A DNA stretch of 53,751 nt from Promethearchaeota archaeon (GTDB taxonomy: Archaea > Asgardarchaeota > Lokiarchaeia > Sigyniarchaeales > SOKP01): the NCBI GenBank assembly GCA_016840165.1, contig JAEOSU010000081.1, positions 1 through 53,751 on the forward strand, written 5' to 3'. Shown piece after piece: positions 2 through 5,625 of this stretch (its first letter is position 1; each line of letters begins with the position of its first letter). Under the pieces are notes generated by a model, which was not told the origin of the DNA, searched no databases, and saw only the letters and a list, made by a program, of their open reading frames with translations. Made by a program: the position numbers and the translations under genes.

Positions 2-247
2 AAAGCTGCAGAAGAACTAGAAAATGAAGAGGGTGTTGACATGGAAGAAGTGGAAAAATGGAATTTGAAAGCGGAAAAATATAAAAAACTGGAAAAAGAA
101 GCAATACGGCAGTTAGACACACTTGAACTAGAAAAAGGGATTAAAACAGATGAAGAATCTCTATTTACGGAAGTAGATGGAAGTGATATTAAAAAAGAGA
201 AGAAAATAGAGGACATTTTTGACGATCCCGGGTTTTTAGAGTTCTAA
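2..247 (+). CDS. 3' end of a hypothetical charged protein (5' truncated by the window edge)
   Basis: The frame is open from position 2 (KAAEELENEEGVDMEEVEKW...) to TAA at 245-247. It ends in an acidic/aromatic tail, EDIFDDPGFLEF. Confidence 0.6.
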   Translation, partial: KAAEELENEEGVDMEEVEKWNLKAEKYKKLEKEAIRQLDTLELEKGIKTDEESLFTEVDGSDIKKEKKIEDIFDDPGFLEF

Positions 248-1896
248 AGATCAAGATTACTAATTATTCTCCTTTTAACATATATTGGAATATATTTCCA
301 AATCGGTAATTTTAGAATAAATTCAAAAAAATGATCAATTGATATTCTCTTCTTTTTTATAAAATATGCCCAGTTATTAAATGCTAAATTATTAAAATGT
401 CTCATCAAATTAACTCCAAATAAATTATAGCGTGAAGCGAAAAATCGCGCAATAAATGTTCCTAATCTTTTTCTTTCTGGAGTTGCTTCTGGATAGATAG
501 TTTCTGATAGAGCTCTATTAAAAATTTCATAGATTGAAAAAATAGGAATAAGTTTATTAATATAAGTTATAGCATTTTTGTTAAATGAGGCATTATTATC
601 AAGTTGAGTACTTACGTTATTTAATTCTTTTAATGCATTATTAATATAATTATCTCTAAATTTTAGCCACATCTTTCCCATTAAATTCCTTAAGGATTCA
701 ATATATTGGATAACTTCGGATTCCTTGAAATGAAAATTTTTCTCATTTTCCTCATACTTAATATATAAGAGGAATATGGAATCAATTTTATCTTGAGGAT
801 TATAATTATTAAAATCTAATGATTTAAATTCAAAAGTAGTTAATGAGTGATATGTATGACATTGAAGAGGTGTAATCCAAATTAAATCAATTAATTTCTC
901 CATTAATTTTATAGATTTAATGCATCTGTCTATATTGATGAAATTTTCAGACTTATCAATACTCTTTAAAGAAAAATATTTTGATTGATTAATTCTAAAT
1001 TTTACTTTTTCTAACCATCTTAATGTACTAATTATACTCTTTTTTTGTTTTTTATATTCAAGAATTTTTTTTATCAGTAATTTTTGAAATGAAAATAATT
1101 GAAGAGTATATGAATAAAAATCTATATTATAAATTTCTTTAATTTCCTGATGACAAATTAATGGAATATATTTTACTTTATCAGGTGTTTTGGTTTCTAC
1201 TTTAATAGCATGATCTCCTACAGAATAAGAAAAAGCTAAGTTTTCTAACGCTTTGTCTAATGAGGAGTAAATCCCCAGTGTTTTTGGATCTCTTGTAAAA
1301 TAACCATGTAATAAAGTGCTTATTCCTTTAAATATTCCATTTTTATATTCTGAAATTATGGCAGATTCGTATTCTCCGAGATGATGTCTATTTATGTTAA
1401 ATAGAGTGTCAAATAAAAAAATTGCTTGATTCGCCCGATGACAAACCGTATGACTCCATTTGAAAAGTGGTTCTAAAATTTTCCCATATTTTAGGATATA
1501 TCCGTAAAATTCTGGGCCAAAATAAATTGGGAATCCAAAACCTCTTGAAGTAGAGAAGGTAAATTGGAACAAATTCCTTTTTTTCTCCCCTTTTAAAAAA
1601 CCTGGAAAGAGATAATGTAAAGCTAATCGTGGATATAAAGCATCCATACCTAAATTCATCCATTTCTCAAAGAGAAGAGTACTATCCGGAAATTTGTATG
1701 AGTCTTTATAATCTGAGAAATAATATTTTAATGAGTCTCCCTTATTATTTTTATAATCAATCCGAGTTTTCTTGAAATAGAAATAGTTTATTACTCTTAT
1801 AAGGGACGTTATTTCTAATATCTGTCGTTGAAAATCATGAGAAACCTTTAGTTTGATATTCAAAGGTTTATTTTTATGTTGCAATAATGAATTCAC
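244..1896 (-). CDS. hypothetical protein, 550 aa
   Basis: Long ORF in AT-rich DNA with no recognisable motif. Confidence 0.7.
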   Translation of the reverse strand: MNSLLQHKNKPLNIKLKVSHDFQRQILEITSLIRVINYFYFKKTRIDYKNNKGDSLKYYFSDYKDSYKFPDSTLLFEKWMNLGMDALYPRLALHYLFPGFLKGEKKRNLFQFTFSTSRGFGFPIYFGPEFYGYILKYGKILEPLFKWSHTVCHRANQAIFLFDTLFNINRHHLGEYESAIISEYKNGIFKGISTLLHGYFTRDPKTLGIYSSLDKALENLAFSYSVGDHAIKVETKTPDKVKYIPLICHQEIKEIYNIDFYSYTLQLFSFQKLLIKKILEYKKQKKSIISTLRWLEKVKFRINQSKYFSLKSIDKSENFINIDRCIKSIKLMEKLIDLIWITPLQCHTYHSLTTFEFKSLDFNNYNPQDKIDSIFLLYIKYEENEKNFHFKESEVIQYIESLRNLMGKMWLKFRDNYINNALKELNNVSTQLDNNASFNKNAITYINKLIPIFSIYEIFNRALSETIYPEATPERKRLGTFIARFFASRYNLFGVNLMRHFNNLAFNNWAYFIKKKRISIDHFFEFILKLPIWKYIPIYVKRRIISNLDL

Positions 1897-2042: not shown

Positions 2043-2495
2043 TTATTCCGGAGTTTTTCGTTTATTGAATAATTGCTTCAATTCACTCATGATTGCCCCT
2101 CTTAAACTAACGGGACTGGCAGGGCGTGCAGCACCAGGTCCTCCAGGCGGTCCTCCAGGCGGTGGGGGTGGCCCTCCAGGTGGCCCACCAGGTGGTCCTC
2201 CGGGAGGTCCGGAAGAAGGTGGTGGGGCGCTAGCGGGTGTTTTAGGTGTCGCAACTATAGGTGTTGATAAACTACCCCCTTTACTTATAGTATTTAATTC
2301 ATTATTAATTGTATTAATTCTAGTCTCTATTGTTGAAATCTTTTGATTTATAACGTTTAATGATTGTTCAACCAAATCTGGAATTTTTAAAATCATAAAC
2401 ATCATTTTTTCAACAATATCTCCAAATGAATTAAGTTTCTCATCAAGAGGCTCTTTTCTTGTCTCTTGCATAAAATTAGCGAATTCTTCTGCCAT
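2043..2495 (-). CDS. coiled-coil + polyproline + C-terminal amphipathic basic helix protein (putative actin regulator, VASP/WASP-like architecture)
   Basis: Heptad coiled coil VEQSLNVINQKISTIETRINTINNELNTI, then (GPPG)n and GPPPPP, then C-terminal LRGAIMSELKQLFNKRK. The CDS is secure; the function is inferred. Confidence 0.6.
   Translation of the reverse strand: MAEEFANFMQETRKEPLDEKLNSFGDIVEKMMFMILKIPDLVEQSLNVINQKISTIETRINTINNELNTISKGGSLSTPIVATPKTPASAPPPSSGPPGGPPGGPPGGPPPPPGGPPGGPGAARPASPVSLRGAIMSELKQLFNKRKTPE
2133..2230 (-). repeat. imperfect 12-nt GC-rich coding repeats encoding GPPG units
   Basis: cctccaggcggt / cctccaggtggc / ccaccaggtggt / cctccgggaggt units on the + strand, with synonymous variation between copies. 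Confidence 0.8.
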
Positions 2496-2632
2496 AGTAT
2501 TCTCTCAATTTTAGATTATTAGGAAGATTGCTAGTATTTTTTCTATTAATTATATATTTGATATGTTTAATAAATTTAAGTTCATCCTTAATACTTAAAG
2601 ATAAAAAAATAATTAAGATTCAAAATTAACTT

Positions 2633-3256
2633 CTAACTTGATTTAGAGACAGAATTTTTTAATTGAATCCATAATTCATTAATCTCATCCCTGACTTGGA
2701 TAAACTGATGGATCTTTTTAATTAAAACGTCTCTTGCTCTGTCAAATTCCCTCTGATAGTCATTTAACTCAGAATCTAGTATCTTTAATTTCTCTCCTTC
2801 TATTAATTTATTTTTTGCTTTCTCAACATTCAGAGCTTTTTTAATTAAAGCTCCTCTTTTCCCAGCAACCTCATCTAAAGCATTTGCTAATTCAATTTTT
2901 TTTTGAATAAAATAGTCTTTATTGACTGTAAGGTTTTTAATAGCATCAATGTATTTATTGTTTGCCTCAATATATTCATCATTTTTATGAATAATATCTT
3001 GGAATAAGTTAACCTCCTCATCTTTAATATTTGAACGTTTTTCTCTTACCAAAGTCTGCATTTGTTTTAAAACATCCCTAAAGGTTCTATTTAACATTTC
3101 TCTTTCTAAGTTAGCTTTTCTAAGTGTTTCTGCATATTTATTTTGGGCATCTATTAGGTTATTCTGAGCTTTAGCTAGCTTTTTAATGTGATTGACTAAA
3201 TCTTTTTCAGTATTTGCTAATTCAAGTTCATCCTCATGAGTTATAATTGGACACAT
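2633..3256 (-). CDS. all-alpha coiled-coil protein, possibly BAR/IMD-like
   Basis: 207 aa, continuous helical heptads, a single Pro near the N-terminus. The segment KKALNVEKAKNKL...EKLKILDSELNDYQREFDRARD recalls the SNX-BAR helix 2-3 tip. Confidence 0.5.
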   Translation of the reverse strand: MCPIITHEDELELANTEKDLVNHIKKLAKAQNNLIDAQNKYAETLRKANLEREMLNRTFRDVLKQMQTLVREKRSNIKDEEVNLFQDIIHKNDEYIEANNKYIDAIKNLTVNKDYFIQKKIELANALDEVAGKRGALIKKALNVEKAKNKLIEGEKLKILDSELNDYQREFDRARDVLIKKIHQFIQVRDEINELWIQLKNSVSKSS

Positions 3257-3344
3257 TTTCCTCAGTTCTTATATAGTTTAATAAAATCTCGATAGTATTT
3301 TAATGGAAATTCATGATTATAATGTTTTAGGTTTTTATATTATT

Positions 3345-4414: not shown

Positions 4415-5488
4415 TTAAATTTTATATCTTAGTATTGCGACCAACGAGCCTAAATCGATAATTTGTTGTCCAGTGAGTTGCTCACTGCTAAGAATATTAA
4501 TTTTAGCATTTGATTTCTCAGCAAGGTTGAGTAAATTCTCAATTTGCATTTTTTTGTCTGTACTGACGCCTCTTATTAAGGTATCAGCGCAAAATAATTC
4601 ATTAATTGCACCTGATTCTGCCGCTTTTGTTACTTCGTTAAAACCAATAGCAATTAAATCAGGATCAATACTAAAAAGCCTAAAAATTTCTTCAATTTTA
4701 GCCATTTCTTGAATTATTTTTACCTTATTTTTCAATTTTATTAATTTATCAGATTTTAAAGTTTCAATTATGGCGCTTTCTGTGCCGGAACTAGCATGAA
4801 TATTTTCGATAGGAGGGAGTTTAATATCGCCTAGCTTATTTTGAATATCTTTTAATAGGTAATTACGAACGTTTCCTGGCCCACAAATAACAATCAAATC
4901 TATTTTTCTTGATTTAACATTCTCTTCAATAATTTTTATGATATTAGAAAAAAATTCCTCGTAGGCTTTATTACGGTAACGTGTTTCATATCTCTTTCCA
5001 GGAATCGTTTTTTTAATAGTTGCTATTCTTGTATTACTATAATTAGATACAAGAAAAATTGTTGCTAAACCAGTCTCAATCGCAATCATAAATATGAGAA
5101 AATTCTTTTCAAAAATTGACAACTCTTTAATCCTTTTTATCTCTGTATTTAACCACTTTTCCTTTTTGATCGATAAAATAGTCCCTATCTCTATATTTAA
5201 CGTATGATAACTCCCGAAGCTGACATAATCTTCAGGTCCTTCCAGTATTGTTCCTTTAATTCTTAATCGATTTGAAAACTCATGAAATGATAGGGATTCA
5301 ACATTTATTGTTAATCGCATAGGCTTTCTCTCTCCTTTGCTCCCTTCTCTCAATACAACTCTTCGGTGAGTCTGTGATGTGACTTTATCTTCTTTTCCAA
5401 TAACATTATAGAGAGCCCATAAATCATTTAAATTTTCAGTCTTTAGGACCATATCTTGTTTCTTTTTATCAAATTCAATGATTTTCAT
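4415..5488 (-). CDS. pelA: mRNA surveillance protein pelota (aDom34)
   Basis: ENLNDLWALYNVI, FHEFSNRLRIKG, GSYHTLNI, IPGKRY, GPG, and C-terminal LGSLVAILRY. Confidence 0.95.
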   Translation of the reverse strand: MKIIEFDKKKQDMVLKTENLNDLWALYNVIGKEDKVTSQTHRRVVLREGSKGERKPMRLTINVESLSFHEFSNRLRIKGTILEGPEDYVSFGSYHTLNIEIGTILSIKKEKWLNTEIKRIKELSIFEKNFLIFMIAIETGLATIFLVSNYSNTRIATIKKTIPGKRYETRYRNKAYEEFFSNIIKIIEENVKSRKIDLIVICGPGNVRNYLLKDIQNKLGDIKLPPIENIHASSGTESAIIETLKSDKLIKLKNKVKIIQEMAKIEEIFRLFSIDPDLIAIGFNEVTKAAESGAINELFCADTLIRGVSTDKKMQIENLLNLAEKSNAKINILSSEQLTGQQIIDLGSLVAILRYKI

Positions 5489-5625
5489 AAGGCTAACACA
5501 AATTTAATTTATACAACTTTATAATAGTAAAAATCTACAAAATTGATTAATTTTTTGCTAATTAGGACTTATTTTGCTTCAATTAAAGAAATAAAAAAAA
5601 TATAAAAATAAAAATCACTTATACT

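Follow-up and report, generated by a model that had tools for sequence, protein, structure and literature searches.

The 207-residue protein P0001, encoded in the 53,751-nucleotide stretch of Promethearchaeota archaeon DNA that was analysed as a whole (hereafter the window), is tentatively read as a BAR-shaped, probably homodimeric scaffold of a single archaeal order which is tied functionally to the polyproline protein P0002 encoded beside it, and for which a role at the membrane or cortex is plausible; we give this reading a probability of about 0.45. According to this proposal, P0001 would form a bundle of roughly 100 Angstrom made of three long antiparallel helices, standing alone in its gene and mostly present as a single copy, which would probably pair in antiparallel fashion, using helix 1, the beginning of helix 2 and the final two-thirds of helix 3. 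The resulting compact six-helix rod would be a rigid dimeric scaffold that acts in concert with the coiled-coil/polyproline protein encoded next to it, while the two ends of the dimer, where the Lys-rich helix-2/3 turns and the basic helix-1/2 loops are expected to lie, may hold P0001 at the membrane or cortex. Fold, taxonomic range, selective constraint and kept gene neighbourhood are computed results and the dimer is a prediction; attachment to the membrane or cortex, an interaction with P0002 and a link to actin are what we infer from the features described below, the positions of which are collected in Table 1.

Table 1. Features at and around the P0001 gene (positions in the window).
Feature	Positions	Strand	Remarks
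orf550, 550-aa Lokiarchaeal protein	244..1896	(-)	third member of the conserved block
P0002, 150-aa coiled-coil / polyproline / C-terminal basic-helix protein	2043..2495	(-)	linked candidate partner
15-mer CTTAAATTTATTAAA	2566..2580	(-)	about 70-85 nt upstream of the polyproline gene start
T7 tract	2603..2609	(-)	24 nt after the P0001 stop codon
P0001 CDS, BAR-shaped three-helix protein, 207 aa	2633..3256	(-)	
Upstream intergenic region of P0001, 88 nt	3257..3344	(-)	sequence reading by eye

The open reading frame of P0001 is a real gene and no chance ORF, because it has 505 homologue clusters (E <= 0.01 in a word-indexed search), nearly all of them exactly 207 aa long and 70-99% identical, and because its comparison with the nearest species gives a dN/dS of 0.03 (dN 0.049, dS 1.7). 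Its start codon is likewise fixed by the homologue alignment, since the N-terminal pattern M-x-P-I-I/V-T is kept from residue 1, and R134 and W196 are invariant or nearly so among the homologues. The initial annotation had described a nearly Pro-free protein of 207 aa and long helices, co-oriented with the 150-aa gene at a distance of 137 nt, and this description holds: the protein has one Pro (P3) and three Gly, AlphaFold2 predicts three long helices and both the strand and the gap are as described. An exhaustive HMMER scan over 1.8 billion representatives yielded only 35 clusters at 50% identity, including divergent full-length members (206-214 aa) down to 18-25% identity, and family length is almost invariably 206-209 residues. 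Within genera g1 and g2, P0001 is the best-conserved product of the local five-gene block, with a median identity of 70.5%, the corresponding values being 58% (Pelota) and 62% (radical-SAM gene). Named homologues are entered as 'hypothetical protein' of Lokiarchaeota/Promethearchaeota MAGs, a literature search found no paper describing the family, nothing on BAR/IMD turned up in text searches of Lokiarchaeota papers, and an ESM Atlas feature search with P0001 returned its own Promethearchaeota clusters only and no named cluster.

The taxonomic range of the family is narrow and densely filled. Its profile matched 72 of 301 Asgard genomes, namely 64 of 68 in family f1 and 6 of 7 in f2, which both belong to the window's order, the window's own genome and one genome of another family, in which the match is weak and contains a stop codon. 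In a class-level sample, it was found in 131 of 151 genomes (f1 114/126, f2 12/13, f31 1/1, f32 3/3), these being all four families of the window's order, while a profile search of genomes from other orders of the same class gave 0/7. From these counts it follows that the gene is near-universal in one order of Lokiarchaeia and is found only there among the sampled genomes.

The family is usually single-copy, and a few f2 and f31 genomes carry divergent paralogues of 209-222 aa (G165:C27:58412-59011, on L038 at 4992-5621; G285:C413; G301:C85, C233), which do not adjoin a polyproline gene. The paralogue of G165 comes after a 155-aa gene with a weak Longin-domain match (E 4e-4, below the cut-off), and one divergent member, P0131 (L002 475-1008 (-), 37% identity), has a small GTPase gene of the Arf/Ras/Roc type beside it in back-to-back orientation, in one lineage only. 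No longer fused form of the family was found among proteins of at least 376 residues. The only longer form is a metagenomic protein of 344 aa (P0138), a single sequence on a 36-kb contig, with a 140-residue N-terminal extension that contains a C-x-x-C motif and has no Pfam match.

The predicted shape of P0001 is the first line of evidence for the scaffold reading. AlphaFold2, given a 19-sequence alignment, modelled P0001 as a three-helix bundle (pLDDT 91.6, pTM 0.76), with helix 1 at residues 7-70, helix 2 at 79-149, helix 3 at 154-205 and short turns between them, so that the model has the general layout of a BAR domain, i.e. about 200-250 residues in three long antiparallel helices. The homologue alignment revealed no conserved Pro or Gly kinks in the helices, and P0001 has no N-terminal amphipathic helix. 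A Foldseek search of the PDB gave as top matches SNX1-SNX5, arfaptin (TM 0.55-0.60), Lsp1, FCHO2, IRSp53, a Galdieria BAR protein and FAM92A, with a best E-value of only 7e-3, and in the ESM Atlas the best TM (0.69) was to a PX-domain (SNX-like) protein. When 48,161 representative chains were compared with VIA-align, a tool in which their arrangement alone often gives helical bundles a Z of about 13-14, arfaptin came first (Z 13.5, rmsd 4.9 Angstrom, 186 of 207 residues), followed by SNX1, Lsp1, IBARa and ACAP1. Re-alignment of Foldseek's top 1000 chains placed BAR-superfamily entries in all of the best 20 positions (Z 11.1-13.5 over 151-195 of the 207 residues), and the first non-BAR entry was SipB, which ties at Z 11.1 but over 131 residues, with Tsr also at Z about 11. 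The likeness to BAR folds that the initial annotation expected from such a comparison was thus recovered among the best 20 solved matches, though at Z scores that overlap those of generic bundles. Since the scores lie within the range of generic bundles and no gap separates BAR from non-BAR matches, we conclude that the predicted shape of P0001 is BAR-like and that the fold match alone is no proof of kinship.

The predicted homodimer is a second line of evidence. The ipSAE was 0.76 in three runs vs 0.00 for the best of three controls, with a contact agreement of at least 93% and a partner pLDDT of 85. In calibration, 20 of 30 solved homodimers scored this high, as did 1 of 23 proteins whose solved structure is a single chain. 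The lowest-error contacts join residue 20 with 58-62, 27 with 48-55 and 37 with 41-44, giving residue sums near 78-82, and therefore centre the antiparallel pairing of helix 1 with helix 1' on residues 39-40, halfway along the helix. At the predicted interface lie residues 6-72, residues 76-91 from the beginning of helix 2, residues 134 and 137 near its end and residues 171-203 of helix 3. In BAR domains the dimer core is built from helix 1, the first part of helix 2 and the final part of helix 3, and the prediction for P0001 is an antiparallel homodimer through these same segments. BAR monomers are staggered, and their three-helix arms project beyond the dimer core; the dimer predicted for P0001 appears to be a fully overlapped six-helix rod, about one monomer long and without arms, because the N-terminus (residues 6 and 9-10) and the end of helix 2 (134, 137) both touch the partner. 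Of the crescent-shaped antiparallel six-helix dimer envisaged at the outset, the antiparallel pairing is therefore predicted, but the contact list implies an overlapped rod with no obvious crescent. The interface is somewhat more hydrophobic than the rest of P0001 (0.44 vs 0.35) and no more conserved (mean top-residue frequency 0.48 vs 0.47 elsewhere), so that conservation lends the dimer no independent support.

The distribution of charge bears on where such a rod might be held. P0001 has a pI of 8.4 and a net charge of +2. Its Lys-rich stretch spans residues 133-151 and EKLKILDSELNDYQREFD spans residues 155-172, and given the helix boundaries of the model the Lys-rich patch covers the last part of helix 2 and the turn leading into helix 3, in agreement with its original description as preceding the last helix. 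Per 15 residues this region carries +3 to +4, in contrast to the acidic beginning of helix 1 (-4 to -5; residues 7-20 net -5), and the two should pack beside each other. Basic positions kept in divergent members are R60, R71, K107, R134 and the K146-K150 turn region (K146/K148/K150), together with R169, R173, K180 and K181 on helix 3 and with R175, R189 and K200. Each end of an overlapped antiparallel dimer would carry the Lys-rich helix 2-3 turn of one chain and the basic helix 1-2 loop of the other (R71, K73, R74, K78). The basic tip noted by the initial annotation has its counterpart in the conserved Lys/Arg of the helix 2-3 turn, but the protein is near-neutral as a whole and the acidic start of helix 1 should lie beside the basic end of helix 2.

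The third line of evidence is genomic and concerns the polyproline gene. In the 30 examined loci of the window's family, the gene order is Pelota, radical-SAM/TRAM, BAR-like, polyproline and orf550; the upstream pair (Pelota and radical-SAM/TRAM) is missing in three loci, in which the other three genes persist, and the BAR-like and polyproline genes are adjacent in 30/30. In an f2 genome (G165), the order is swapped, with the polyproline gene followed by the BAR-like gene, co-oriented; in an f31 genome (G301) and the metagenomic contig L068 the two genes are convergent; and in two f32 genomes (G302 and G304) the polyproline gene is followed by a 150-aa gene (L073 4737-5189 (-), L074 2552-3007 (+)) and then by the BAR-like gene, after which comes an archease gene. 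A Pfam search with the intervening 150-aa protein gave no match. That the adjacency survives four different gene arrangements supports a functional link between the BAR-like and polyproline genes. On the other hand, in genera g10, g12, g13 and g77 and in some metagenomic contigs the polyproline gene lies elsewhere, at a distance of 259 kb in the closed genome G213, so that the partnership with the neighbouring gene suggested by the initial annotation is backed by kept adjacency but faces several genera in which the pair is unlinked.

The third member of the block, orf550, belongs to a Lokiarchaeal-only family and had no Pfam or PDB sequence match; its AlphaFold2 model (pLDDT 74) is beta-rich towards the N-terminus and helical towards the C-terminus, and a structural search with this model gave no meaningful match (best Foldseek E 0.2). 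As for the polyproline gene itself, in locus L035 (G210) the codon aligned with its Met1 is ATA, three codons after an in-frame TGA, and no ATG, GTG or TTG lies between the TGA and the aligned ATA, so that the start at this locus may be non-canonical. Loci L027 and L028 have an in-frame ATG three codons upstream of the aligned ATA and thus ordinary starts.

Much of the above could also be accommodated by a soluble coiled-coil adaptor devoid of any membrane role, which might for instance serve a small GTPase or the polyproline protein as an arfaptin-like effector or platform, the BAR likeness being then a matter of common three-helix geometry. We hold this to be doubtful, although it has several observations on its side: the structural Z scores overlap those of generic bundles, the protein is near-neutral and its uniformly high whole-surface conservation suggests several protein partners, charge and conservation being explained equally well by such an adaptor. 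The GTPase gene back-to-back with P0131, the additional gene between the polyproline and BAR-like genes of f32 and the paralogue that follows the weak-Longin gene point in the same direction. However, the window has no GTPase gene close to P0001, the GTPase neighbour is confined to a single lineage, and the f32 gene matches no Pfam family.

A further explanation holds that P0001 is a true, extremely diverged member of the BAR superfamily, whose curved dimer would sense or generate membrane curvature and which would share its ancestry with the eukaryotic BAR domains. Sequence and profile tests were directed at this question. With Pfam and NCBIfam, no family exceeded the cut-off for P0001 or for any of 19 diverse members of its family; below the cut-off, the searches with the single sequence, the 19 members and the profile gave scattered coiled-coil noise (e.g. 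Syntaxin_2, COG6_N, Taxilin, Mod_r), and FCH matched 2 of the 19 members at E 0.055. A PDB sequence profile search with the family returned designed coiled coils only, and neither sequence nor profile of the BAR-clan families (BAR, Vps5, Arfaptin, IMD, FCH, FAM92, Pil1) matched P0001. PF09325 (Vps5) found nothing over the cut-off in 301 Asgard genomes, nor at the P0001 locus. PF06730 (FAM92), on the other hand, matches 24 of 81 genomes of the order, 20 of them over the cut-off, at loci which differ from those of the P0001 family, but has no match in the genome to which the window belongs (G000). These FAM92-like BAR proteins (at G189:C786, G270:C161, G132:C85 and others; L056-L067) are stand-alone and about 211-220 aa long, and they served as a positive control: an alignment of nine of them matches CIBAR1 (9uhd) at 3e-18 and weakly also IRSp53 and amphiphysin, from which it follows that genuine Lokiarchaeal BAR proteins are recognisable by the PDB profile test. 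In hhalign, the P0001 family and the Lokiarchaeal FAM92-like family were related with a probability of only 1.7%. Because the Pfam/NCBIfam, PDB-profile, hhalign and PF09325 tests are all negative, P0001 cannot be assigned by sequence to any of the known BAR families, and it appears to differ from the BAR proteins previously described for Asgard archaea (PMC10307638; PMC13716822).

Descent from a BAR ancestor accordingly appears unlikely. It does draw on the best 20 solved matches, which are all BAR domains and cover nearly the full length of the protein, on a size equal to that of minimal BAR domains such as arfaptin and CIBAR1, on a dimer predicted through the helix segments of the BAR core, and on the occurrence of bona fide BAR proteins in the same order; in addition, a co-immunoprecipitation with Lokiactin from L. 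ossiferum recovered BAR proteins, albeit without significant enrichment (PMC13716822). Weighing against it are the profile tests, in which the FAM92-like family readily reaches CIBAR1 but the P0001 family reaches no Pfam or PDB profile and scarcely the FAM92-like family itself, the full overlap without arms implied by the contact list together with the lack of conserved kinks, and the restriction to one order, which fits local invention better than ancient inheritance. Of the 'BAR/IMD-like' label originally given to P0001, the predicted shape of three long helices thus stands, but no profile places the protein in BAR, I-BAR/IMD, F-BAR, SNX/Vps5 or FAM92.

Comparison with individual BAR systems makes both the likeness and its limits more concrete. 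The best structural match, the BAR domain of Arfaptin-2 (PDB 1i49, 4dcn), resembles P0001 in its size, its three long helices and its lack of extra domains, but sequence identity is 7-12% with no profile signal, and no GTPase link emerged for P0001. Arfaptin is an elongated crescent with arms beyond the dimer core, in contrast to the fully overlapped dimer predicted for P0001. CIBAR1/FAM92A (PDB 9uhd, 8ceg; PF06730) is matched at Z 12.9 over 191 residues of 9uhd, and its Lokiarchaeal FAM92-like relatives are, like P0001, stand-alone proteins of similar size in the same order, whereas they occupy other loci and carry an amphipathic N-terminal stretch (MFKKF...) which is absent from P0001. The SNX-BAR proteins (SNX1/SNX5, Vps5; PDB 8a1g, 4fzs, 6h7w) are the top Foldseek match and reach Z 11.8-12.5 in VIA-align, and the basic helix 2-3 turn of P0001 lies at the position that the initial annotation likened to the SNX-BAR tip, but P0001 has no PX domain. 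The Asgard 'Vps5-BAR' has been described mainly from Thorarchaeia and is often fused to Vps28 (PMC10307638), unlike the P0001 family, which was not found outside one Lokiarchaeial order and gave no fused long form among proteins of at least 376 residues.

With the I-BAR/IMD domains (MIM 2d1l, IRSp53 1wdz/2ykt, IBARa 4nqi, PinkBAR 3ok8; Z 9.5-11.5), P0001 shares straight, unkinked helices and a dimer that looks like a rod rather than a strong crescent, but it is shorter, has no fourth helix and gives no IMD Pfam signal. MIM joins its I-BAR domain to Pro-rich and WH2 regions, which in the present case are not fused to P0001 and lie in separate genes, and the analogy with MIM drawn by the initial annotation finds no support in homology. 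The eisosome BAR proteins Pil1/Lsp1 (PDB 3plt, 8qb7-9; Z 11.4-12.1) show the lowest rmsd (3.0-3.8 Angstrom) and the highest identity (14%) to P0001 among the BAR matches, with only 166-168 residues aligned and no Pil1 Pfam signal. The high whole-surface conservation of P0001 would be consistent with a scaffold that forms a lattice.

The gene neighbourhood also invites the view that P0001 is a housekeeping factor for RNA or translation quality control, which we regard as very unlikely. In genera g10, g12, g13 and g77 and in some metagenomic contigs, the BAR-like gene is the last of a Rrp41-Rrp42-L37Ae-Pcc1 row, in the window's family it follows Pelota and the radical-SAM/TRAM gene, and it is near-universal, mostly single-copy and strongly constrained, all of which would suit such a factor. 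Nevertheless, archaeal housekeeping superoperons often carry unrelated genes, P0001 has no nucleic-acid-binding or prefoldin-like feature, and the polyproline gene is the only neighbour kept across rearrangements, those that suggest the housekeeping role differing from lineage to lineage. P0001 also appears to have a promoter-like box of its own in the 88-nt gap before it: read by eye, this region holds the A/T-rich box TTTATTAAAC...TATATAA some 20-35 nt upstream of the ATG, with a GAGG about 6 nt from the latter, which would represent the promoter and ribosome-binding site of P0001.

On its downstream side, the T7 tract may be an archaeal terminator-like signal, and almost every orthologous locus has a similar oligo-T tract after the stop codon. 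The 15-mer CTTAAATTTATTAAA occurs only once in the window, recurs nearly unchanged at the corresponding position in loci of several genera, and is probably a promoter or regulatory element of the downstream polyproline gene. Because the oligo-T tract follows P0001 and the conserved CTTAAATTTATTAAA precedes P0002, the sequence suggests that the two genes are transcribed separately, and the co-transcription that the initial annotation had proposed to check looks unlikely.

A polymerising coiled coil of the ESCRT-III/PspA or prefoldin kind is highly improbable, for while P0001 is all-helical, about 200 aa long and resembles Lgd-Shrub weakly over part of its structure (Z 9.5, 109 residues), its model is an up-down-up bundle of three near-equal helices with no beta hairpin, and none of the 19 members gave a Snf7, PspA or prefoldin Pfam signal. 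ESCRT-III/PspA/Vipp1 identity was rejected on this lack of Pfam signal and on three near-equal helices in place of a hairpin followed by shorter ones, and prefoldin identity on the lack of beta strands in the model and of a Prefoldin Pfam match; the two-helix or parallel coiled coil (PspA/ESCRT-III- or prefoldin-like) named by the initial annotation as the contrary outcome is thus absent from a model of three near-equal antiparallel helices.

Returning to the reading of P0001 as a BAR-shaped scaffold tied to the polyproline protein, its BAR shape comes without sequence support and should therefore not be counted towards an Asgard origin of the BAR domains of eukaryotes by inheritance, for which the FAM92-like family of the same order makes the better case. 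To our knowledge, no proteins are known that link membrane shape to Lokiactin. It is conceivable, if quite improbable, that a compact BAR-like dimer, made by Lokiarchaeales or diverged beyond recognition, and a polyproline tether together couple membrane shape to Lokiactin in protrusions; if true, the two proteins would be a lineage-specific analogue of the eukaryotic modules that connect BAR domains to actin regulators. Cultured Loki-type archaea build dynamic, actin-filled protrusions (PMC13716822). In conclusion, near-universality, strong constraint, a BAR-like predicted shape and dimer and a kept adjacency to a proline-rich gene make the P0001/P0002 pair a concrete and easily expressed candidate for the biochemistry of archaeal membrane or cortex scaffolding.
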